A stretch of 64,000 nt of DNA, taken from positions 27,358 through 91,357 of the forward strand of contig JBBACQ010000003.1 of the NCBI GenBank assembly GCA_041656935.1, given 5' to 3'. Below, piece by piece: positions 3,001-56,993 of the stretch. The stretch's first letter is position 1; each line of letters starts with the position of its first letter. Both the position numbers and the translations under genes were made by a program. This DNA comes from Patescibacteria group bacterium (GTDB lineage: Bacteria; Patescibacteriota; Patescibacteriia; Patescibacteriales; UBA12465). Below the pieces are notes generated by a model. The model was not told the origin of the DNA. It ran no database searches and saw nothing but the letters and a program-made list of their open reading frames with translations.

Positions 3001-5332
3001 AACTATTTCCATTAGGATTAATAGTAAAATTAACTTTATTAGAACCATAAATATCGGGGAAAGTATAGGTTAAGCTCTGATATTCAAAACCACCTGAATT
3101 ACTAATATTTTTAGGCAAGCTACCTCCTAAAGAGAAACTAGAAGTAGCCGTTCCCGAACAATAAGAATAAAAAGATAAGGTATAAGTTTCCCCACCGATA
3201 TTATAACTACTACTAGCAACTGTTATGTCCTCGGATAAAGAAGAAGAACTAGGAAGATATAAGGAAAGTTGACCAGTATAAAAATTAGTACTAGTAGAAT
3301 AAGAATCCCAACCACCAATACTCAAATCATCTTCAAAACTTCCATTTAATAAAAAATTATGGCCAACGCCTACGGCTGTTCTAATAAACTCTTGGCAACC
3401 CTCATCGTTAGCTGAACAAGATTGAATTTTATTGTTAAAATAATAAGAGCTGGAAATATCCCAAGTTACTTTTTTATTAAAAGAGTCATAGGTCAAGGGA
3501 ACAACATATTTTTTACAACCAACATTTTCCGCATCACAGCCTTCATAGTCAAGAGTGTTCTTTAATAAAGCTAATTTCTTACCGTTAGAAACACTAGTAA
3601 AATAATCGCAGGTATTATAAACTGGATCACAAGAATCTTCTGAAAAGTTCCAAATTCTTTTCTCTTCTAAACAATAACCATAATATTCACAGGTACCATC
3701 CGACCTCTCTTTAATACAGGATTGTTCGTCAGCACAATAATTATCAGACCGAGAAACAATAATCGGTTTAACACCAGTTTGTTGATAAATATCTTCGGCG
3801 ACATTAACCAATTGTTGACTAGCAATATGACCGCCGTATCCTTGACGTTTGCAATAATTTAAAGGCGCCTTTAGAACCCAATTAGGATCAATTAATCCTC
3901 GGCACCATAATGAATTTGAATCTTCCCCACCATAACCAGATTTAATAAAACCATCACTATAAGTTTCATAATCATCCTCGCTAGAAAAACAAGAAACAAA
4001 ATCCATTAAAGTATAGCGATAACCTTTATCAGTTGTTTTTTCTTCAGCTAAATTAAGAGCCTCTTCCCAACCCAAAGGGATAATACGAAACTTTCGTAAA
4101 ATAATTAAGGAACGATGATTAAACCCAGTGGTGTAATCAGAATATCTTTCTAAAGTCCAATCAGGATTTAAATAACCATTATCAATGGCCTCAATTACAG
4201 TATTTTTATTCTCAACTGCCTGTCGGAATTGATTATCAATAACACAATTATTCGGTCTCGGATTTTTAGGATCTAAACAAACAATTAAATCCGATAAAAT
4301 ATTATAATCAGCTCGAACGTTGAAGCGAGGTTTAATAACTTTTTTTAATGATTCTATTACATATTTCTGACCAGAGAATGAAGAGGGGTCAGAATCCGAA
4401 GAAGTATAATCTGGACCACCGTTGTCTGAAGAAGCATCCGGATCTTTTTTACCTAAATTTTTAACTATATTATTAAAAGCAGTTATTGCTAATTGATTTA
4501 AAAAAATATTAGAAGCGTCCACCAAAGCATTGCCAGTAAACTTTCCTAAATTTTGTACCAAGGCTGAGTCAGCTTGTTGTAATTCTCTCTCGGCCTGTCC
4601 GGGAGGAGTATCAGTTGTTCCACCAATATTTCTCAAATCTAACCAACCATTATTTATTTTTACCTGTTCTTCAATTTTTTCCTGTTCTTCATCCCCAATC
4701 TCGGCTGACCGACCAAAAAGTTCTAGAGCAATGGTAACATCATTGCCAGTTGGCTCAAACATATTGGCTACCTTGCTTAAATAGTCTGGACCGCTCATGC
4801 TAGCCCATTTTTCATATTCGTTCACCCAACTAGATTTTAATTCTTGCCAACCACACCTAGGAGCATAAAATTCTGGCTGGGAAAGAGCCACCAAACCTAA
4901 ACCCATTTTTACTTGAGTATCAAAACTAGGTTGACATAAATCAAATTGCCAATCTTTACTTAAGGTATCAATAAACTTACCAATTGCCGCATCTCTAGTT
5001 TTACTACCCAAATCGGTTAAATATTCTGTAGTAAATAATGGTTTTTGCCCCGCTTCACCACTACCAATCCAAGTAGCAACATCGAAAGCTAGAGTATTTA
5101 AGACCGATTGCAGAGTAGATTGAAAAGCCAAAGACCCAGCTTTTTTTAATTGGTCGGCCAAATCATCTTTGATATAATCAACAACTCCTCTAATAACACC
5201 AGTTGGTCCACCAATAACATCCGGGCCAGCCTGAACTTTGAAAGGATAAGATAGGGTTCCAAAAATAAAAGAGAAAATTAAAAAAAGAATTAAAATTTTC
5301 CCTTTATAAAAATTGAATTTAGGCTTATTCAT
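1..5332 (-). CDS. Giant secreted/cell-surface cysteine-rich protein, N-terminal >1777 aa; the gene continues beyond the window start
   Basis: Open minus-strand frame from ATG at 5332-5330 to position 1. I spot-translated three places: MNKPKFNFYKGKILILFLIFSFIFG at the start, SLEAISSSNKNIKLTVG near 2400, and CYSYTIDQETNEKICLEMRECN at 1-61. It has a hydrophobic N-terminal signal/anchor, is very Cys-rich, and contains NGSFEDD..GGW jelly-roll/CBM-like stretches. It is absent from the ORF track because there is no stop inside the window. Confidence 0.8.
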   Translation of the reverse strand, partial: MNKPKFNFYKGKILILFLIFSFIFGTLSYPFKVQAGPDVIGGPTGVIRGVVDYIKDDLADQLKKAGSLAFQSTLQSVLNTLAFDVATWIGSGEAGQKPLFTTEYLTDLGSKTRDAAIGKFIDTLSKDWQFDLCQPSFDTQVKMGLGLVALSQPEFYAPRCGWQELKSSWVNEYEKWASMSGPDYLSKVANMFEPTGNDVTIALELFGRSAEIGDEEQEKIEEQVKINNGWLDLRNIGGTTDTPPGQAERELQQADSALVQNLGKFTGNALVDASNIFLNQLAITAFNNIVKNLGKKDPDASSDNGGPDYTSSDSDPSSFSGQKYVIESLKKVIKPRFNVRADYNILSDLIVCLDPKNPRPNNCVIDNQFRQAVENKNTVIEAIDNGYLNPDWTLERYSDYTTGFNHRSLIILRKFRIIPLGWEEALNLAEEKTTDKGYRYTLMDFVSCFSSEDDYETYSDGFIKSGYGGEDSNSLWCRGLIDPNWVLKAPLNYCKRQGYGGHIASQQLVNVAEDIYQQTGVKPIIVSRSDNYCADEQSCIKERSDGTCEYYGYCLEEKRIWNFSEDSCDPVYNTCDYFTSVSNGKKLALLKNTLDYEGCDAENVGCKKYVVPLTYDSFNKKVTWDISSSYYFNNKIQSCSANDEGCQEFIRTAVGVGHNFLLNGSFEDDLSIGGWDSYSTSTNFYTGQLSLYLPSSSSLSEDITVASSSYNIGGETYTLSFYSYCSGTATSSFSLGGSLPKNISNSGGFEYQSLTYTFPDIYGSNKVNFTINPNGNSCYIDDIKLEKGAVGTFYSEYRGNGLIYEKIIPEYLKNICYVSPTDFRLKTNAPSECYKYARLCNNDEVGCETFTSIYNLKITGKVLDKNYCPNQCVGYDVYVQKNTLFENRAIEKLIPSSATSCNASQSGCTEFTNLDELAVGGEGKEYYTSLKHCIKPDGGTCENFYSWEGVSGGGYQLKSYSLEAISSSNKNIKLTVGSLTSSSANIWQHEINGSTVCDQNIYNKPVSDPGYNSDCREFYNQAGQIFYILYSKSISCSANCKTYRMTEKNINYAYTDSSGCLSLNQAGQPLVASWDSGLNVCYHCLNGGWWDNTQKACLYKSIPGEGQGCSASVNGCREYNGNSGNSVRIVDSFDFNYGLEDWAGDVSVSTTEALGQGGSSILLTDEMQNNIGNLAKTGSSYIIKFLAKSNQAENLSIYFTDGTAESLFGSVNKDDQEVQGVQISDSDDWTLYQVNLENLDHSVISGEDLVFKISDSSGNVYIANIVLLEISNRYYLIKDSWAVPAICKFDVLGNQQTENYNLGCQNYSDRLNNNHSLINFSKICDDSAVGCEMMVKTNNYNSYNPTNYSFQAVVYDTGKACSSANMGCSLFGKMLVENVYQDTYLKYDPNKATTTNGFLCTNNELGCDAWNSSSQSGTIYFKDPGDNVCQWRSGKIVSGTTEITALNWYKKKVNRCGGTGILCVTDSDCAVNVSCSLDNIDHLCAVDNLKTIGWGGSAIDQPTEDDNKVKWAGLCPIKQAGCTEYIDPVSSFGSNIIINSSFLDLDGDGQIFDFWEEITGACTLDDDEIVCSQNIKYQQNLNIKNNKLYILETKGEQDATIFCVNPIYELDSSNTFLDPLISPVAPSSYFVKVSKNVSGYNKKSFYSGDNNPCWVIYERPSGTFLIGEPDSQIELREAVIDYQLKQNLNSDSCSGADFSKGCVLFNERSYNNGIINPLNFNAYNYTNYSTCSGASCDANTLLKVDPDRVCGKWLACYSYTIDQETNEKICLEMRECN

Positions 5333-9157: not shown

Positions 9158-9922
9158 ATGAAAATTATATCTTGGAACATTAATGGAATCAGGGCGGTTG
9201 TTAAAAAGGGCTTTAAGGATTTTTTAGAAAAAGAAAGCCCTGATATTTTAGTTTTACAGGAAATTAAAATATCAGATGATAAAAAAAACAAGGAAGAATT
9301 TGATTTTAGTGATTATGAAGAATTTTGGAATTCAGCTCAACGACCTGGTTATAGCGGAACATTAATATTATATAAAAAAGAATTAAAAGTGCTAAAAAAA
9401 GAAAATGGTTTAAAAATTGATAAATTTGATAATGAGGGCCGAGTTCAAACCCTAGAATTAAAGGATTTTTACCTAATTAATACTTATTTCCCCAATTCTA
9501 ATCACGAGTTGAGCCGATTAGGCTACAAATTAGATTTTAATAATGAATTAGAAAAATACTTAAAAAAATTAGACAAAAAGAAACCAGTTATTTTAACTGG
9601 GGATCTAAATGTTGCCCATCAAGAAATTGATTTAGCTCGTCCCAAAGAGAATATTGGCAATCCCGGATTTACTTATGAAGAAAGAAATTGGCTAACTAAT
9701 TTTCTAAAAGATGATTTTATTGACACCTTTAGACATCTACATCCAAAAAAAATAAAATATTCTTGGTGGAGTTTTCGTTCTGGCGCCAGAATTAAAAACA
9801 TTGGCTGGAGAATTGATTATTTTTGTGTCTCAAAAAAATTAATAAAAAAAATAGAGCGGGCTGATATTTTAGACCAAATCACTGGTTCAGACCATGCTCC
9901 AATTGTTTTAGAGATAAAATAA
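9158..9922 (+). CDS. xth: Exodeoxyribonuclease III (AP endonuclease)
   Basis: MKIISWNINGIRA...LQEIK...GDLNVAH...GSDHAP motifs of the ExoIII/APE family. Confidence 0.9.
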   Translation: MKIISWNINGIRAVVKKGFKDFLEKESPDILVLQEIKISDDKKNKEEFDFSDYEEFWNSAQRPGYSGTLILYKKELKVLKKENGLKIDKFDNEGRVQTLELKDFYLINTYFPNSNHELSRLGYKLDFNNELEKYLKKLDKKKPVILTGDLNVAHQEIDLARPKENIGNPGFTYEERNWLTNFLKDDFIDTFRHLHPKKIKYSWWSFRSGARIKNIGWRIDYFCVSKKLIKKIERADILDQITGSDHAPIVLEIK

Positions 9923-11484: not shown

Positions 11485-12348
11485 ATGAAAAATAATAGAA
11501 ACATCACTCTTAAGGCCATTATTCTAATATTTTTTTTATTAATATTTTTTGTTCCCATTAATAAAACTTTAGCCAGTGGAATAGAATTTGTCCCTCAAGT
11601 TACCATCCCGGGATCTAATTTTATTAAAGGACAAAACACTACTATAGAAGGCGGAACCAAGGCCTTGGCTATCTATGTTAAATCTATTTATAATTACTTA
11701 TTAGCCATAGTTGGATTGCTCGCTGCTATTGTTTTAATGGTTTCGGGTGTTATTTGGTTAACCGCTGGAGGAAATACTGAAAAAATCGGCCAAGCTAAAG
11801 GCTGGATGACTGGTAGTTTAACTGGTTTAATTTTAATGCTAACTTCCTACGTAATTTTAAGAACGATAAATCCTTATTTGGTTGATTTTAGAACAAACGA
11901 TGTTGATAATATTGACCGCCGAGAAAAAAACACTGTTTGCGTTAAATATAATGAAGGGGAAAGACAAGGAGAAACAAAAGATGGTAAATTATTTATAACC
12001 AGAACCGCCGCCGAAATAGCCGAGAATGAAAAACTTAAAGAAGAAGGAAAAACTATTCAAAATGTAGCCAAAGAGTGCTTAGAAGATGAAGTTTGTGCTA
12101 AAATTAAATATGAAAATCCTAATGATATTTTTGAATGTACTAAAAAAAATAAAATTAGATGTTGCCAATATGAAAAAATGGATTCACTCGGAATAACTTG
12201 CAAAACAATAACTAACGGAGAAAGTTGCCCTGATCCTAAAGAATCATATCCTGATATTAAATTAAAATATATATACGAAGAAGAGATTTGTGATTTGCAA
12301 TTTAATAATTCTGGAAGAAATGCCTGTGTCCCAGATGGAAAAATGTAA
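11485..12348 (+). CDS. Cys-rich membrane protein with a TrbC/VirB2-like (type IV secretion pilin-like) two-helix domain
   Basis: Signal/anchor, then AIVGLLAAIVLMVSGVIWLTAGGNTEKIGQAKGWMTGSLTGLILMLTSYVIL, then a Cys-rich C-terminal extension. Paralogous core to the ORF at 13236-14618. Confidence 0.6.
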   Translation: MKNNRNITLKAIILIFFLLIFFVPINKTLASGIEFVPQVTIPGSNFIKGQNTTIEGGTKALAIYVKSIYNYLLAIVGLLAAIVLMVSGVIWLTAGGNTEKIGQAKGWMTGSLTGLILMLTSYVILRTINPYLVDFRTNDVDNIDRREKNTVCVKYNEGERQGETKDGKLFITRTAAEIAENEKLKEEGKTIQNVAKECLEDEVCAKIKYENPNDIFECTKKNKIRCCQYEKMDSLGITCKTITNGESCPDPKESYPDIKLKYIYEEEICDLQFNNSGRNACVPDGKM

Positions 12349-13211: not shown

Positions 13212-13235
13212 TTTTTGAATTACTCTTCTAAAAAT

Positions 13236-14618
13236 ATGCCTAAATATTTTAATAAAATAATCACTCTATCTTTATTAATATTATTTTTTGTTTTTTTAGT
13301 TCCCACCACACAGGTTCAATCAGCTGAAATTGGAGAAAAATGTACAAGTTTTCAAGATTGCCCTATTAACAATATGTGCGTTTACTCAGGGATGTCTAAA
13401 AGATGTTATCCTAAAATAGGGGGAGGTTGTAATAGTAATAATGATTGTTCTCATATAGAAGAACACTTAGGAATTCCTGGGGCTTTTTGTGATTTATCTA
13501 AACCGGTATTAACATACCCCGGAAGTTGCTTTAGCGCTAGCAGTGCTCCCAAAACAACCACCGATGATGGTTGTTCCTGGCGAGTAGAAAGACTTGTTCC
13601 CGGTGGCACAGTAAGCACTTTTCAAGGAGGATGCTATAGTACCGAAGAAAAATCTAGTAATGATAAATGTAAAACTATTACCCAACCAGAAAAAAATTCT
13701 GGAGACACTATCTACTGTTGTTGCCGAAAAAAAACGGAAGAAAAAGTTAAAACTCCCGATTTAAATCCTTTAGGAAATTTACAAATAAAAATTCCAGGGT
13801 TAGAAGAATTAGCTGAAAAATACCCAGTAATTTGTGAAAAAAAAGACGGTAGTGAGGTTTGTAAAATACCTTGGATTGCCGTTTATATTTATGCTATTTA
13901 TAATTATCTTCTAGGTATTGGTGGAATTTTAGCAGCGCTGGCTTTAATGATTGGTGGAGTTATCTGGCTAATTTCGGCTGGAAACGCTACTCGTGTTACT
14001 CAAGCTAAAAGCTGGATTACCGGTAGTATAACTGGATTAGTTATTCTTTTAACTTCTTATGTTTTACTTTATCAAATAAATCCGAATTTAGTGGGGATGA
14101 AGTATTTAGAACTTGAAAGTGTTCTTCCATTGGCTTGTGCTGGGATAGACGAGACCAACGAAAACCCCTATATAGCCGGATGTGCAGCTTCTAAAAATGG
14201 CGATTTTAGTATTTGTCGGGCTTTTGGAGAAATAGAAGCTAATAGTTTAATTACTGACCCTGTTTCTGGGAAAAAAGTACACACCGACACATTAAATAAA
14301 TTTAATGAAGCCATGAAATGTGTCAAAGCGAAAAATTCCAATAAAGATCTTTTTAAAATATCTTCAGGCTGGAGAAGTGCTTTAGGCCAAATTAAAGCCA
14401 AGGAAGATTGGATAAAAGCAGGAGTTCCCAAAAATGCCGCTAATCCCTGTTGCTCTAATCATGGATCCGGAAAAGCAATGGACTTAATGAGATTAGATGG
14501 ACAAAAAATGTCATGGGACTATAATGAAAGCTCTGGATTAAAAGAATGTATGAATGCTCAAGGACTATACGCAAATCTATCCAGCGAACCTTGGCATTGG
14601 TCACCGACTGGAAAATAG
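13236..14618 (+). CDS. Cys-rich T4SS-pilin-like membrane protein fused to a C-terminal LAS/M15-type (VanY-like) zinc peptidase domain
   Basis: The track ORF starts at a TTG at 13215; the ATG at 13236 (MPKYFNKIITLSLL, signal-like) is more likely. Pilin-like core: ILAALALMIGGVIWLISAGNATRVTQAKSWITGSITGLVILLTSYVLL. C-terminus has SGWRS, HGSGKAMD (H-x6-D) and EPWHW. Confidence 0.6.
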   Translation: MPKYFNKIITLSLLILFFVFLVPTTQVQSAEIGEKCTSFQDCPINNMCVYSGMSKRCYPKIGGGCNSNNDCSHIEEHLGIPGAFCDLSKPVLTYPGSCFSASSAPKTTTDDGCSWRVERLVPGGTVSTFQGGCYSTEEKSSNDKCKTITQPEKNSGDTIYCCCRKKTEEKVKTPDLNPLGNLQIKIPGLEELAEKYPVICEKKDGSEVCKIPWIAVYIYAIYNYLLGIGGILAALALMIGGVIWLISAGNATRVTQAKSWITGSITGLVILLTSYVLLYQINPNLVGMKYLELESVLPLACAGIDETNENPYIAGCAASKNGDFSICRAFGEIEANSLITDPVSGKKVHTDTLNKFNEAMKCVKAKNSNKDLFKISSGWRSALGQIKAKEDWIKAGVPKNAANPCCSNHGSGKAMDLMRLDGQKMSWDYNESSGLKECMNAQGLYANLSSEPWHWSPTGK

Positions 14619-39158: not shown

Positions 39159-39294
39159 GCTCGGGGGCAGGGATTCGGCCACACGTCGCTAAGTCTCGCT
39201 TGTCTCACTTCGTTCGACCGCGCTCACTAAGCGCTCTGGCCTGGCCTCGCGGTGTTCGCTACGCTCACACATCGCTCCGGCTTTCTCATCCCTG
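39159..39294 (-). repeat. tRNA-linked G+C-rich structured module, Gln copy, ending in a 19-nt copy of the tRNA-Gln 3' end
   Basis: Minus-strand reading: CAGGGAT-GA-GAAAGCCGGAGCGATGTGTGA-GCGTAGC-GAACACCGCGAGGC-...CTTAGTGAGCG...ACTTAG...GTGGC-CGAATCCCTGCCCCCGAGC. The last 19 nt (39177-39159) are identical to native tRNA positions C56-C74 (39388-39370). Followed by minus-specific terminator GUGGA/UCCGC+U8 (39137-39111). Confidence 0.6.
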
Positions 39295-39370
39295 ACGCGA
39301 AGCACTCAAGTGCTTCGATCCCCCTCACTCATTCAAAAAATCCAGCTTAAGCTGGATTTTTTTTCATTCG

Positions 39371-44801: not shown

Positions 44802-46532
44802 TCAATTTTCTAAAATGACATCTTCGCCTTCTTTTATTTCTTGCTCTTCCTTTTTTTTATTGTCTCTATCTTCCTTTTTATTATAAAAACTAACTGGTTT
44901 AACCATTTTTAATTCTTCTAAACTCAAGCTCTTTTGATTTTTCTCTACTTTGTCCTCAACTGGCTTATAATTATTTTTTTCTAAACCATTTTTAACCGCA
45001 AAATTATTATTATTTTTAGGAAAATCTTTTTTTATACTTTTAACCGGAGGATTACTCTTAACCGCCGGACGATTAATCAAACATTCTCTACAATAAACTG
45101 GTCTAACCCCATCTGGTTCAAAGGGCAGGCTAACCTCAACTCCGCAAGAGGAACATTTACTCTGAAACCCCTTATTAGAAAAATCCTTTTTATCTTTCTT
45201 ATAATCTTCTTTTTTATTATCTGGAGCTCCTTTATCTTTTTTTTCTTCTGAATAATCTTGATGCCAGCGCATAATTTTTTCTTCTACCAACTCTCTCTCA
45301 CTAGCATATTTCTGTCTAGAATAAGAAATAACCTTTTCAACGTTATCGGTTTTTTCTTCAGTTAATAATGGTGGCAGACCACGAGCTGAAAAAGGATCCG
45401 AAGAAATTCCATCAATCATTAATTTTAAATACATTTCATATTTAGGTAAATTAACAATATCTTCCTCGGTAAAAACAGGAGTAAATTCTTTAACTAATTC
45501 TTCCGCATCAGCTGCTCCAACACGAAAAACAATAATCGTTCCAACGTTTCCAAAAACTGCTGGCTTAACTCGCTCATCTAACTGTTCAATGTATTGATGA
45601 GCCATAACTAGATTTAAACGATATTTTCTGGCCTCTGATAAAATATTAGCGAAACTTTCGGTAGAGAAGTTCTGAAATTCGTCAATGTATAAATAAAAAT
45701 CTTTTCGATCTTCTTCGTTAATATTAACCCGGCTCATAGCGGCTAATTGAATTTTAGTAATCATCATAGCACCCAATAGAGCCGAATTGTCTTCACCAAT
45801 TCTTCCCTTACTTAAATTCATGATAAGAATTTTACCTTCATCCATTATTTTTCTCATATCAATTGAAGATTTAACCTGACCAACAATATTTCTCATAAAA
45901 GAACTAGATAAAAATTGACCAACCTTATTTTGGATCGGAGAAACTGCCTCGGAAGCAAATTTGTCCGCATAAGAAGCAAACTCTTTCTCCCAAAAGGATT
46001 TAACCACTGGATCTTTAATGTTGGCGACCACCTTTTTACGATATTCCTTATCAGACAACATTCTAACTACTCCTAAAAGAGTAGACCCGGGGAAATCTAA
46101 AATAGCTAAAATGGAATTTCTCAAAATATATTCTAAACGAGGGCCCCAAGAATCAGCCCATAATTTTTGAAAGACGCCAATCAAACCCGAGGCAACTAAA
46201 TGTCTAAGGTGAGGTTCAACCTGTTCTACTAAATTAAAAGCAATTGGGTAATCAATATCTGAGGGGTTAAAATAAACGACGTCATTTATTCTATTATTAG
46301 GAATATATTGAATAATTTTTTCAGCTAAATCTCCGTGCGGATCAACTACCGCCACTCCTTTACCAGCTCTAATATCTTCAACTATCATATTTTCTAAAAT
46401 AGTTGATTTACCCATACCAGTTTTTCCAATTAAATACATGTGCCGACGACGATCGTCAGTTTTAATACCAAAACGTCGCATTTGATTGCGAAAATTGGTT
46501 TTAGCGAAAAATATTATATCATTATCAATCAT
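44802..46532 (-). CDS. VirD4/TraG/HerA-superfamily P-loop ATPase with a C-terminal Zn-ribbon
   Basis: Walker A GKTGMGKST, Walker B YLYIDEFQNF, RKYRLNLVMAHQ. The tail has CSSCG...YCRECL after a Lys/Asp-rich linker. Confidence 0.6.
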   Translation of the reverse strand: MIDNDIIFFAKTNFRNQMRRFGIKTDDRRRHMYLIGKTGMGKSTILENMIVEDIRAGKGVAVVDPHGDLAEKIIQYIPNNRINDVVYFNPSDIDYPIAFNLVEQVEPHLRHLVASGLIGVFQKLWADSWGPRLEYILRNSILAILDFPGSTLLGVVRMLSDKEYRKKVVANIKDPVVKSFWEKEFASYADKFASEAVSPIQNKVGQFLSSSFMRNIVGQVKSSIDMRKIMDEGKILIMNLSKGRIGEDNSALLGAMMITKIQLAAMSRVNINEEDRKDFYLYIDEFQNFSTESFANILSEARKYRLNLVMAHQYIEQLDERVKPAVFGNVGTIIVFRVGAADAEELVKEFTPVFTEEDIVNLPKYEMYLKLMIDGISSDPFSARGLPPLLTEEKTDNVEKVISYSRQKYASERELVEEKIMRWHQDYSEEKKDKGAPDNKKEDYKKDKKDFSNKGFQSKCSSCGVEVSLPFEPDGVRPVYCRECLINRPAVKSNPPVKSIKKDFPKNNNNFAVKNGLEKNNYKPVEDKVEKNQKSLSLEELKMVKPVSFYNKKEDRDNKKKEEQEIKEGEDVILEN

Positions 46533-55005: not shown

Positions 55006-55052
55006 AAGTTGACTTTATATTTTTTATTAACTAAGATATTTATGTTAATTAT

Positions 55053-55126
55053 GGGCCTTTAGCTCAGTTGGCTAGAGCACCTGCTTTGCAAGCAGGGGGT
55101 CAAGGGTTCGAGTCCCTTAAGGTCCA
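55053..55126 (+). tRNA. tRNA-Ala (anticodon UGC)
   Basis: Acceptor GGGCCTT/AAGGTCC with G3:U70, anticodon loop TTTGCAA, T arm AAGGG-TTCGAGT-CCCTT. Terminator ACCAACCCAAA-CTGC-TTTGGGTTGGT+T6 at 55135-55166. Confidence 0.92.
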
Positions 55127-55180
55127 CTGAAAAAACCAACCCAAACTGCTTTGGGTTGGTTTTTTTATTATGACAAAATT

Positions 55181-55338
55181 AAGGGACTCGAAAGCCGGAG
55201 CGATGTGTGAATTGCCGAAGGCAATGAACACCGCGAGGCGGGGTCGCGAGTTCTTAGTGAGCGTAGTCGCGTTAGCGCGAAGCGCTTTTACGCGACAAAC
55301 GAACTTAGAAACTCGTGACCGAGTCCCTTAAGGTCCAC
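55181..55338 (+). repeat. tRNA-linked G+C-rich structured module, Ala copy, ending in a 19-nt copy of the tRNA-Ala 3' end
   Basis: AAGGGAC-TC-GAAAGCCGGAGCGATGTGTGA-ATTGCCGAAGGCAAT-GAACACCGCGAGGC-...CTTAGTGAGCG...ACTTAG...GTGAC-CGAGTCCCTTAAGGTCCAC. The last 19 nt (55320-55338) equal native 55109-55127. Followed by terminator AACAGAC-GAAA-GTCTGTT+T (55349-55370). Confidence 0.6.
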
Positions 55339-55613
55339 AGACTAAAAGAACAGACGAAAGTCTGTTTTTTGCTTTATTTATAAATAGCTGGCGACTTTAT
55401 CAGTAATGGGTATACTATATAGTGGCAGTCAGAAAACTAGATGAGGGCGGGAGATAACTTGTAAGGCTCGGCTTTTCTAAATTCTAATCCCATACAGCAG
55501 AATAATAAAAACAAAAAACAGGCATAAAACCTGTCTCTTTATATCGTCTCCGAGGGTGGGAGAACATTAAAGCCCGTTTAGTTTACCCCACCGCATAGCT
55601 CATTAACAACTTT

Positions 55614-56450
55614 CTAAACTCCAGCCTTTTTCCGTAATTCAATTTGTAATTTCAAAGCTTTTTGATGTATTTTATTATATCTATCAGCAGTGCTATCTTC
55701 TAGATCCAGATAATCTTGGTATTTATTATTATAATGGGCCTTATCAGAAAAATCATCCAACGCATTATAAACGATAGATGCTGAGCGACTTTCATTCTTT
55801 TTATTTAGAGGGCTCAAACCCAATCTAGCAGAGTCTAATTGATTATAAAGAATATGATAAGGATCACTTTTTTCTTTATCAAAACTATTTACTTCAGCTT
55901 CTAATTGTTTTAATTTACTTTCAACATTTTCAAAAATATCATCTATTAACTTATTTATTGTTTCTTTATCTTTTTCAAAAACATCACCTTCATTAATTCC
56001 CTTTTTTAAATTATCTATTTTCTCGGCTGATTTTTCCTGATCTTCCTTTTTTAATTCGTCCAAACTTTTATCATATTTTTCTAAATCTAAGGTTGTCTCT
56101 TTTAGCTTTTGCGATAATTCATTTTTTTTTATTCTTAAAGTATTTAACTTATTAGCAAGATCAGAAATAATATTGTTATATTCACCTTTAAAATCATCAT
56201 CCTTTTCTAAACCCGCCTCCTTCATTGAATCCCTTGTTTCGTGTGCTTCATTTTTTAATATTTCAATTTGAGAGTCAATGTCTGAAATTTTATTTTCTAA
56301 ATTATTTTTATTATCAATTAACTCCTGTTTTTCTTCTGTTTTTCTTAATTCTTTTTCAGTTTCACGAGATTTTTTTTCTTCTATTAATCTCTTAGCTTTC
56401 TCAGCTGGCGATTCTTGTTTTTCTTCATTTTGTTTTTTTTCAAAATCCAT
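55614..56450 (-). CDS. Acidic/lysine-rich coiled-coil protein
   Basis: 278-aa ORF with heptad-like E/K/L-rich sequence throughout. Its promoter TTGACA-17-CATAAT overlaps an ATTGA inverted repeat. Confidence 0.55.
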   Translation of the reverse strand: MDFEKKQNEEKQESPAEKAKRLIEEKKSRETEKELRKTEEKQELIDNKNNLENKISDIDSQIEILKNEAHETRDSMKEAGLEKDDDFKGEYNNIISDLANKLNTLRIKKNELSQKLKETTLDLEKYDKSLDELKKEDQEKSAEKIDNLKKGINEGDVFEKDKETINKLIDDIFENVESKLKQLEAEVNSFDKEKSDPYHILYNQLDSARLGLSPLNKKNESRSASIVYNALDDFSDKAHYNNKYQDYLDLEDSTADRYNKIHQKALKLQIELRKKAGV

Positions 56451-56720: not shown

Positions 56721-56770
56721 ATTGATTAAGATTGAGTACATTTGAGTACAATTGATAACGATTGAGAAAG
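56721..56770. repeat. Five tandem 10-bp iteron-like repeats with an ATTGA core
   Basis: attgattaag/attgagtaca/tttgagtaca/attgataacg/attgagaaag, at exact 10-bp phasing. The related inverted pair ATTGA-ttttg-TCAAT lies at 56510-56524. Confidence 0.7.
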
Positions 56771-56844: not shown

Positions 56845-56869
56845 AGGGTTCGAGTCCCTTAAGGTCCAC
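56845..56869 (+). repeat. 25-nt direct copy of the tRNA-Ala 3' end (att-like)
   Basis: AGGGTTCGAGTCCCTTAAGGTCCAC is identical to 55103-55127. Followed by terminator GAGATTTGG/CCAAGTCTC+T-run (56875-56909). Confidence 0.85.
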
Positions 56870-56993
56870 ATTACGAGATTTGGCATTAACCAAGTCTCTT
56901 TTTGTTTTTAAGATTGGCGATAATTTCGAAGTTTGAAATAAAAAAAGAGGGTTCTTTAATAGCAACCCTCAAAATACTTTACGATTATTTTAA

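Follow-up and report, generated by a model that had tools for sequence, protein, structure and literature searches.

Genomic islands and prophages, which enter the 3' end of tRNA genes by means of P4-type tyrosine integrases, and the integrase-less, cis-mobilisable elements derived from them (CIMEs) are recognised at tRNA genes by a direct repeat of the tRNA 3' end that starts in the T-loop, a tRNA that stays intact, tandem arrays and precise empty sites. Retroposons resembling short interspersed elements (SINEs), which insert by target-primed reverse transcription, are short and protein-less, encode a structured RNA and are flanked by target duplications of variable length; we know of no reverse transcriptase partner described for any bacterial SINE-like element. 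Features of both are found in an element that stands behind the two tRNA genes of a 64,000-nt stretch of DNA from a Patescibacteria group bacterium (GenBank assembly GCA_041656935.1, contig JBBACQ010000003.1, positions 27,358 to 91,357 of the forward strand); this whole stretch is called the window below. The element consists of a first hairpin, which usually has a CTGC loop and often serves as the tRNA terminator, one or two guides (segments complementary to the 3' part of the tRNA), a G+C-rich module of two hairpin domains, P2 and P3, and a tail that repeats the 3' end of the neighbouring tRNA from C56. The reading that we prefer, and to which we give a probability of roughly 45%, is that the two copies belong to a widespread, undescribed family of protein-less insertion elements of ~110-260 nt in Patescibacteria (the candidate phyla radiation, CPR), which lie immediately 3' of tRNA genes, are non-autonomous and move most likely by copying primed at the tail.

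Two copies of a structured element behind tRNA genes

The window has a G+C content of ~31% and, as determined by ARAGORN and Rfam, exactly two tRNA genes: tRNA-Ala(tgc) at 55053-55127 on the forward strand (71.7 bits in Rfam) and tRNA-Gln(ttg) at 39441-39370 on the reverse strand. The two genes have a promoter-like TTGACT-17-TAAGAT in common, at 55009-55037 (+) and 39491-39463 (-), respectively; between tRNA and element, a promoter-like site is not predicted in either copy. Both tRNAs are intact. An earlier model-made note on this DNA (hereafter the original prediction) had stated that both are followed by one and the same layout, in which C56 to C74 of the tRNA recur as an exact 19-nt copy, and this is confirmed from the sequence.

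In the Ala copy, all of it on the forward strand, the last 19 nt of the tRNA (55109-55127, C56-C74) form the first copy of the repeat. They are followed by the hairpin CCAACCCAAA-CTGC-TTTGGGTTGG with T7 (55136-55166, the hairpin itself at 55136-55159), which is borne by the element and serves as the terminator of the tRNA; it is homologous to the CTGC-loop hairpins of other elements, and the CTGC loop recurs across loci. A spacer of 13 nt separates the hairpin and its T7 from guide B, TAAGGGACTCG (55180-55190, with an AAA junction to 55193), which complements tail positions 56-66 over 11 nt. Guide A is absent from this copy. The P2 hairpin (55194-55239) shows the conserved internal loops GCC-GGA-GCG-AT-GTGT-GA ... 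GA-ACAC-CGC-GA-GGC, and P3 (55240-55319) is a long hairpin of the CTTAG type. The tail CGAGTCCCTTAAGGTCCAC (55320-55338) is identical to tRNA positions 55109-55127, pairs with guide B and represents the second copy of the repeat. Past it lies a terminator (55345-55370) that directly follows tRNA-Ala in relatives lacking the element.

The Gln copy is on the reverse strand. Here the first copy of the repeat (39388-39370) is followed by an element-borne terminator, ATCCAGC-TTAA-GCTGGAT with T6 (39357-39335), which is kept in the Gln elements of other genomes. The acceptor 3' strand of the tail has its pairing partner in guide A, GGGGG (39324-39320), 3' of which come the hairpin CGAAGCAC-TTGA-GTGCTTCG (39317-39298) and guide B, CAGGGAT (39294-39288, with a GAGAAA junction to 39282), complementary to tail positions 59-65. 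The module (39281-39178) is made up of P2 at 39281-39244 and P3 at 39243-39178. The tail CGAATCCCTGCCCCCGAGC (39177-39159), the second copy of the repeat, is identical to tRNA positions 39388-39370 (C56-C74).

Some details of the layout had been described as uniform and turn out to hold for one copy each. A 7-nt complement of the T-stem is found in the Gln copy (CAGGGAT), the complement in the Ala copy being 11 nt long; a module of about 130 nt fits the Ala copy (~129 nt) and not the Gln copy (~110 nt); the second terminator is called behind the Ala tail at 55345-55370, and past the Gln tail there is only a weaker hairpin with T8 at 39137-39111 (-), unflagged by the terminator scan. The coordinates 55053-55338 that had been assigned to the find embrace the Ala copy and leave the Gln copy outside, and a third copy of the tRNA-Ala 3' end at 56848-56870 had been missed. 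The shared blocks, on the other hand, are all as described: in addition to CTTAGTGAGCG and ACTTAG, the copies have in common a 21-nt and a 14-nt block, each with exactly two occurrences in the window even when 2-3 mismatches are allowed, where shuffles expect 0. The overall identity of the Ala and Gln copies is 74%. The predicted fold of either copy is a three-way junction; its energy is -80.5 kcal/mol (z -8.4) in the Ala copy and -64.5 kcal/mol (z -2.7) in the Gln copy. A covariance model constructed from 14 elements of other genomes, the window copies being left out, retrieves them at 39166-39297 (-) with 132.7 bits (E 4e-32) and at 55178-55331 (+) with 91 bits (E 2e-21); the next-best match in the window scores 11.6 bits.

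The fold was evaluated by covariation in the largest subtype (19 sequences, 35 consensus pairs). Of the cells assigned to pairs 95% are paired, as compared to 79% after column shuffles and 39-50% when the partners are slid against each other. Both sides have changed in a compensatory manner in 26 of the 35 pairs, and 0 of 500 shuffles reach the observed percentage paired, number of compensatory pairs or covariation score. One U.G pair is invariant, a G.U is the commonest state of another pair, and 55 G.U cells stand against 4 A.C cells. Since G.U is kept and A.C is rare, the strand that folds is the sense strand, i.e., that of the tRNA, and a pattern of this kind is the usual signature of RNA. 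We consider it probable that the sense strand forms a functional RNA fold. Most apical loops have the form C(GNA)G or C(GNNA)G, and GCGNAGC is found among them with each of T, G, C and A as N; those in the window are GCGTAGC (39264-39258) and GCCGAAGGC (55214-55222). Loops of these types, GCGNAGC among them, are hallmarks of very stable DNA mini-hairpins.

The guides pair preferentially with the tail of their own element. Guide B has -12.2 kcal/mol with its own tail and -7.8 kcal/mol with non-cognate tails (p = 5e-13); for guide A, which has a fixed place just 5' of the conserved hairpin, the values are -8.0 and -6.0 kcal/mol (p = 1e-4). Guide A complements acceptor positions 66-72, and guide B together with GAA complements positions 54-66; at L140 and some other loci (those outside the window are cited by L numbers) the guide is a single continuous 17-nt complement of the tail. 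According to the predicted pairing, guides and tail rebuild tRNA-like acceptor and T stems, the P2/P3 module stands in for the T-loop, and one hairpin, whose tip is very often CCAA-CTGC-UUGG, replaces the D and anticodon arms. The discriminator base and the bases following it are single-stranded in this predicted fold. The junction after guide B reads G-A-A in 45 of ~49 elements and is complementary to C56-T55-T54. At L147, tRNA-Asp with the T-loop TCCGAGT is the sole tRNA with C55, and it adjoins the sole canonical element that reads GGAC, not GAAN. At L132 (tRNA-Arg), the guide GCGATTCGAA complements positions 54-62, and the tail starts only at position 60. The G-A-A junction, L147 and L132 hint that the guides may match the tRNA or its gene as well, beyond what the tail contains.

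No described family accounts for this element. Rfam 15 at the gathering threshold returns tRNA genes only, both for the window and for 16 further loci, and leaves the module unmatched; E-value scans of the two window copies against it yield merely weak matches, centred on tRNA and terminator. ARAGORN and Rfam call the upstream tRNAs alone and do not call the element itself a tRNA or a transfer-messenger RNA (tmRNA). IMG/VR has 0 matches to the 21-mer or to the degenerate pattern used in the survey below; the 14-mer alone gave chance matches in GC-rich phages only and was dropped. With the Gln element as the query, blastn matched nothing in phage and plasmid collections. The literature was searched by topic and by sequence, and no description of the element was found. 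The group I introns in tRNAs of Patescibacteria, which are located at anticodon-loop position 35/36, are unrelated to it (PMC13011429). One of the three readings offered in the original prediction, a novel non-coding RNA with a tRNA-like 3' tail, is right as a description, given that Rfam 15 has no match and that the tail rebuilds acceptor and T stems.

Distribution, insertion sites and repeats

Further copies, the search for which had been recommended along with the readings, were looked for in one scan of one genome per species with a purine/pyrimidine-degenerate pattern of the P2 hairpin. The scan gave 63 loci, nearly all of them in Patescibacteria, together with three metagenome-assembled genomes (MAGs) of Elusimicrobiaceae. 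The carriers are Falkow-, Kuenen-, Uhr-, Lloyd-, Yanofsky- and Sungiibacteria, Paceibacterota, Saccharibacteria and some otherwise-labelled MAGs. The Elusimicrobiaceae copies (L168, L172 and L175, in MAGs from gut or rumen) are type B elements with the same CCAACTGCTTGG hairpin as in CPR genomes; they reflect either cross-phylum transfer or mis-binned contigs.

Almost all matches are positioned directly 3' of a tRNA gene, and each ends in the 3' end of its own tRNA. Thirteen isotypes are occupied (Gln, Leu, Ser, Arg, Tyr, Asp, Cys, Glu, Met, Ala, Lys, Thr and Val), and Gly is occupied too, by an element with another module. The repeat starts 17-21 nt before the tRNA end given by ARAGORN, i.e., at about C56, in 32 of ~40 scorable elements, and its right end varies from -4 to beyond +20 relative to the tRNA end. 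Such a repeat was found at 0 of 8 tRNAs in unrelated viral loci. L135 is an orphan without a tRNA, and L165 has lost its tail.

Unrelated G+C-rich modules occur in the same layout at L127, L132, L133, L162 and L178 and in the second unit of L176, and so the constant feature is the scaffold, not one module. Within the P2-bearing set, P3 is of at least three types. In a single MAG, CAZOCX01, the modules at tRNA-Leu (L154, 3616-3674) and tRNA-Glu (L176, 124-181) are identical over ~100 nt, from GAAA to GACCGA, except for the tip of P2, where the apical hairpin is wholly different in sequence and length; everything outside the module differs too. Judging by this pair, the P2 tip seems to behave as a hypervariable cassette. 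It was also considered as a second specificity determinant matching the anticodon and discarded, as inspection by eye revealed no consistent relation.

Orthologous loci were retrieved through neighbouring genes, the upstream M23 peptidase in the case of tRNA-Ala and FtsX in the case of tRNA-Gln. An element is present at one of seven orthologous tRNA-Ala loci and at two of the 16 readable tRNA-Gln loci (L194 and L198). In L185 and L190, which are empty, tRNA-Ala is directly followed by the terminator that stands behind the tail in the window (31/34 and 28/34 identical, respectively); L184, L188, L191 and L192 lack the element as well. Among the tRNA-Gln loci, L196 and L197 are empty with a flank that matches the Gln post-tail flank of the window (38/47), and L195 and L199 are empty with the post-tail flank of L121 (51/55 identical). 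A comparison with strains having empty sites had been suggested, and these three pairs of loci supply it. Because close relatives have precise empty sites, the element is sporadic. In our view, it is very probably an accessory mobile insertion. These data also show that the reading of a miniature non-coding element which targets the T-loop region of tRNA genes and needs help in trans was broadly right: the insertion is precise, bounded by repeats and absent from close relatives, and no recombinase is linked to it at the 63 loci or present in the window. Its variant, a decayed attP-bearing element, is not supported, as the helices covary strongly and the family is conserved across Patescibacteria.

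The tRNA-Ala of L186 holds a different element, with a scaffold resembling that of L153 and a module resembling that of L130. Past its tail comes a 45-nt stretch identical at 40 of 45 positions to the element-borne Ala hairpin of the window, then an A+T-rich remnant and a partial third copy, AAGGTCCAC. With this arrangement, L186 is an array in which the older unit decays distally to the tRNA. Other arrays are found at L198, L176, L141 and L183, and arrays hold different modules for one and the same tRNA.

The repeats can include sequence of the host flank. In L162, the tRNA-Gly element has a 33-nt repeat containing 16 nt of a lineage-specific spacer that its relatives L171 and L143 have once. 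Whole host terminators lie within the repeats of L132 (51 nt in total) and L164 (~62 nt), and the length of the duplication ranges from ~17 to >60 nt. In L150, L158 and L194, the guides are of a donor type, as with another tRNA-Gln variant, and both copies of the repeat are of the local host type; in the tail of L150, one change restores pairing with the foreign guide B. At L158, the element lies 1.1 kb from the real tRNA-Gln and has a decayed proximal repeat; the tail agrees with the tRNA at 20/20 positions although the flank beside it shows ~25% divergence, and guide B is mismatched to the tail. Copies without 5' parts are the Ala copy of the window, L162 and L132. The repeats would be made from host DNA at insertion, because closely related scaffolds and modules are found at many isotypes, with both repeats cognate in every case, because host flank and whole host terminators are included (L162, L132, L164), and because donor-type guides stand beside host-type repeats (L150, L158, L194). 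The 19-mer tail is accordingly best read as a putative host-derived duplication of the target. A conservative exchange by an integrase in the T-loop would put element sequence into the tRNA, making it chimeric whenever the isotype changes, and copy-in is therefore favoured. That the element moves by tail-primed replicative copying rather than by conservative recombination is a tentative conclusion, to which we lean with a little less than even odds.

Three arrangements seen during the survey are recorded here for their own sake. Behind tRNA-Arg at L178 (5308-5380) there is a mini version composed of the sense T-arm 5' half AGGTTCG, two G+C hairpins and then CGATTCCTGTCGAGTGCAC; the hairpins interrupt the T-loop of a tRNA 3' fragment, where CG is present in duplicate. 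In L162 (~370-460), a G+C-rich hairpin of 41 nt stands behind an old 5' fragment of tRNA-Thr, GCAGGATAGCTCAGTTGG, and leads into AGCACGTCGCAC, a T-run and then an intact tRNA-Thr, and the relative L171 has a plain tRNA-Thr at the matching position; this is possibly a 5'-side counterpart of the phenomenon described here. In L129, ~250-330 nt past tRNA-Arg(ccg), a second tandem unit ends abruptly behind GCCGGAG and continues as ATCGGGGATCACTCACCCGGATCCCGGGAGTCC, which resembles the cloning polylinker GGATCCCGGG, and the contig may be chimeric.

Possible routes of movement

We infer each step of the copy-in route as follows. The element would be transcribed by read-through from the tRNA promoter, and the transcript would then be trimmed in a tRNA-like manner. 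A single-stranded copy of the element, either RNA (retroposition) or imported single-stranded DNA, would use its tail to anneal to a tRNA gene, on the strand that complements it; at other isotypes, the conserved CGAATCC-type T-loop and T-stem would suffice for annealing. The annealed DNA end would prime synthesis over the module and the guides, and a second junction at a variable point downstream would generate the host-derived direct repeat and leave the tRNA intact. The new copy would automatically gain the tail of its new tRNA, and the guides would adapt later by compensatory change. Under copy-in, the junction module|C56 would be fixed because homology ends there; the route would likewise account for an outer boundary that varies, for a tRNA left intact, for the gain of a new tail and for copies without 5' parts.

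A more far-reaching version is that the element is a pairing-programmed, RNA-only, tRNA-homing retroposon or RNA-guided insertion system, categorically new and with an enzyme not yet linked to it. The RNA of the element carries both a complement of the target (positions 54-72) and a copy of it, and could pair with both strands of the tRNA gene or use its tail for target-primed copying; because each insertion supplies a new tail, such a system would retarget itself to any tRNA. We regard this version as doubtful.

A number of observations weigh against tail-primed copying. No candidate reverse transcriptase, nuclease or other enzyme was identified in the window or at the 63 loci, and Patescibacteria are reported to be without group II introns (PMC13011429). 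A terminator stands between tRNA and module in about half of the elements, including both window copies, and no promoter of the element is predicted, so sense transcription would depend on read-through. Islands moved by tyrosine integrases classically leave just such a footprint, a repeat of 17-23 nt that begins in the T-loop and covers the tRNA 3' end. The array copies that are newest and proximal to the tRNA, the element's terminator after the regenerated tRNA end and the island remnant behind the Ala element fit an integrase too. Selection on the tRNA could have restored the host type in the first copy of the repeat, and empty sites could equally be deletions between repeats. The apical loops of the types C(GNA)G and C(GNNA)G may be compatible with a fold of single-stranded DNA. 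A CCA after the tail where the tRNA gene is without it, which might point to a mature-RNA intermediate, occurs in L159 and L161 only, about as often as by chance, and was not used.

The genes around the element offer no partner. All-against-all clustering of the open reading frames (ORFs) at the 63 loci did not detect a recurrent neighbour protein family, the top clusters being local housekeeping genes or spurious ORFs over RNA, and no recombinase, integrase or nuclease gene stands beside the element at these loci; none of the protein groups whose tabulation had been recommended (recombinases, TnpB/IscB, IS110-type) recurs there. The ORFs of the 64-kb window include no integrase, recombinase, reverse transcriptase or TnpB/IscB/Cas12-type nuclease; they are housekeeping only, and none is a candidate partner. 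An EEP-family protein (9158-9922) was rejected as the partner enzyme, since it looks like an ordinary exonuclease III-type enzyme. Amid the housekeeping genes, two type IV secretion pilin-like-domain proteins and a TrwB/TraG-like coupling ATPase are encoded at 11485-12348, 13215-14618 and 44802-46532. Judging from their domains, these pilin-like and TrwB/TraG-like proteins could be relevant to DNA uptake or exchange.

The third copy of the tRNA-Ala 3' end mentioned above, GGTTCGAGTCCCTTAAGGTCCAC (56848-56870, +), is longer than the tail, comprising 23 nt from G52 to C74, and lies 1.5 kb beyond it. Four 10-nt direct repeats at 56727-56770 (GATTGAGTAC, ATTTGAGTAC, AATTGATAAC and GATTGAGAAA) precede it by ~80-120 nt. 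This copy is probably the far junction of a separate, conventional integrated island behind the Ala mini-element; if it does mark an island junction, the terminator at 55345-55370 may be island-borne. The sole ORF between the Ala tail and the third copy (55614-56450, -) encodes a K/E-rich coiled coil of 278 aa. It has no Pfam, NCBIfam or PHROG family and, being a coiled-coil protein without a family match, was dismissed as a hidden recombinase. In L191 (3532-5112, -) and L192 (~3700-5245, -), a large serine recombinase with Resolvase and Recombinase domains is encoded immediately 3' of the tRNA-Ala terminator. As these recombinase genes adjoin it, this tRNA-Ala is a hot spot for other mobile DNA too.

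The island remnant and the adjoining recombinases lead to the main rival explanation, which holds that the element is a miniature integrative element, a cis-mobilisable remnant, for whose movement a tyrosine integrase would be supplied from another place in the genome or from a helper element. It would carry a tRNA 3' end and a terminator and enter by conservative recombination in the T-loop, the tail would be the displaced original end of the tRNA, and the RNA would be cargo or a regulator. The span of the repeat from the T-loop to the tRNA 3' end, the element-borne terminator directly after the restored tRNA, the older, decaying array copies distal to the tRNA (L186, L198), the precise empty sites, the island remnant immediately past the Ala element with its 23-nt repeat and its arm-like direct repeats, and the recombinase genes of L191/L192 are all consistent with it. 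However, the integrase itself is missing from the 63 loci and from the window, homologous scaffolds and modules have cognate repeats on both sides at >=13 isotypes where conservative exchange should have produced chimeric tRNAs, and the repeats contain 16-45 nt of host-specific flank, host terminators included. Donor-type guides with host-type repeats in L150, L158 and L194 are likewise difficult to reconcile with it; the guides and the covarying fold would be left without a role, and a circle of ~200 bp would be very small. On balance, we find this explanation unlikely. A part of the same evidence can be viewed from the side of the host: the element could be a resident, beneficial tRNA-mimic RNA (a decoy, a sensor or a processing/regulatory RNA for the cognate tRNA) that spread by homologous recombination and gene conversion and keeps its identity by selection for mimicry. 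A strongly conserved, covarying fold and a tRNA-like architecture would suit such a role, and so would the L158 tail, 20/20 identical to the tRNA despite ~25% divergence of the flank and a mismatch to guide B, and the compensatory change in the L150 tail. A beneficial resident is hardly expected to occupy only 2/16 and 1/7 orthologous loci or to leave orphaned, tail-less and decaying copies, and the terminators upstream of the module with no predicted promoter, the arrays with different modules for one tRNA and the duplication of host flank by insertions speak against it as well; this makes it quite improbable.

The loops that are typical of stable DNA hairpins bring up the idea that the fold acts as a single-stranded DNA recombination site, as do integron attC and folded phage attP, in which guides and tail would present the tRNA 3' part in double-stranded form to a recombinase acting in trans after uptake or in replication. 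It would explain why C(GNA)G and C(GNNA)G loops dominate, with GCGNAGC having every N, why the newest array unit is next to the tRNA, why the terminator is upstream of the module and why the guide-tail duplex reproduces the target sequence. Conserved and even invariant G.U pairs (55 G.U against 4 A.C cells) argue for RNA instead; besides, the stem has its junction on the loop-proximal side, in which it departs from attC, neither the 63 loci nor the window yielded a recombinase, and host-flank duplications are unexpected from attC-like chemistry. We judge this mode very improbable. The remaining reading of the original prediction was a scaffold with a 3' guide, as in TnpB omega-RNAs and Cas12 crRNAs. 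It was considered here for RNA-guided nucleases or transposases of the TnpB, IscB or Cas12k type, aimed at the tRNA gene beside GGTT. In its favour are the order of the parts, a scaffold followed by a 19-nt 3' end identical to the target, and the T-loop GGTT just 5' of the match in the tRNA. This proposal is close to refuted: no such gene occurs in the window or beside the 63 loci, neither omega-RNA nor another Rfam family is matched, the 5' part of the tail is sequestered in cis by its own complement, the repeat is a duplication of variable length that may include host flank, and the intact tRNA would be a self-target.

Should tail-primed copying prove true, CPR bacteria, whose genomes are among the most reduced, would carry abundant unannotated RNA-only mobile elements with tRNA genes as undamaged landing pads. 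A large structured-RNA family, comprising at least three module types and several unrelated modules on the same scaffold, would be added where non-coding RNA is barely charted, and nature would here supply an example in which targets are recognised by base pairing and retargeting is built in. The stray 3' fragments of tRNAs and the surplus terminators that confuse annotation behind tRNA genes would be explained. Finding what moves the element, whether reverse transcriptase, recombinase or simply ordinary replication and repair, would reveal the first bacterial SINE-like system or a recombinase accepting any tRNA T-arm. Either outcome is of interest for genome engineering and for DNA exchange in episymbionts.

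Comparison with known systems

As in tyrosine-integrase islands and CIMEs, direct repeats of the tRNA 3' end flank the element, exact over 19 nt in both window copies, and arrays and empty sites are likewise present. No integrase accompanies it at the 63 loci or in the window, however; it measures only ~110-260 nt, and the same lineage occurs at >=13 isotypes. Its repeats are probably host-derived, vary in length and may include flank, and it contains repeat-complementary segments and a covarying RNA fold. With SINE-like retroposons, it shares the small size, the structured RNA, the lack of a protein and target duplications that are host-derived and variable in length; in addition, its 3' end could anneal to the target, and 5'-less copies (without guide A or the hairpin) keep the 3' part. 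Unlike them, it has no A-tail and no known reverse transcriptase partner and is specific to tRNA 3' ends, and its likeness to tRNA is at the 3' side and rebuilt from the target copy.

Correia, ERIC, RUP and REP/BIME sequences resemble the element in being small, non-coding and intergenic, with stable hairpins, often beside terminators and sporadic among strains. They differ in having terminal inverted repeats that do not vary and short duplications of a set length; specificity for tRNA is seen in none of them. The inverted ends of the element are the tRNA 3' end and its complement and change with the isotype, so it is not a miniature inverted-repeat transposable element (MITE). Integron cassettes and attC sites are similarly mobilised in trans, can be non-coding, conserve fold over sequence and form arrays at one fixed site. 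In contrast to them, the element has neither IntI nor a GTTRRRY core (its junction reads ...GACC|GAATCC), the junction has another position in the stem, and the evidence favours RNA.

Among tRNA-like RNAs, the tRNA-like domain of tmRNA, viral 3' tRNA-like structures, mascRNA and YrlA also have acceptor- and T-like stems stacked beside a single-stranded 3' end with a discriminator. In the element, a module of ~80-130 nt replaces the T-loop, the D and anticodon arms are reduced to one hairpin or none, and the stems copy those of the neighbouring tRNA. A functional tRNA or tmRNA was rejected, as the module takes the place of the T-loop and the loop of the one hairpin measures only 4 nt. Target-complementary segments, which in the element amount to ~17-19 nt at positions 54-72, are likewise known from the IS110 bridge RNA, the TnpB omega-RNA and the exon- and intron-binding sites (EBS/IBS) of group II introns. 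As compared to these, the element has no cognate enzyme gene and no sequence or Rfam similarity, and it keeps a copy of the target in cis, paired to the guides. An IS110-type bridge RNA was discarded, there being no recombinase ORF and the fold being a three-way junction without bispecific loops. A group I intron, split or permuted tRNA, tmRNA, hammerhead, IS200/IS605, IS91 (GTTC target) and Tn7 or CRISPR-associated transposon (CAST) homing were considered and set aside: the tRNA is uninterrupted, core motifs are absent or the geometry of the repeat is unfit.

In general, the nearest counterparts of the element in the way it works are miniature tRNA-integrating islands and SINE-like retroposons, and it has the defining features of neither. 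Undescribed in Rfam 15 and in the searchable literature, it is kin to the small non-autonomous insertion elements at tRNA genes.

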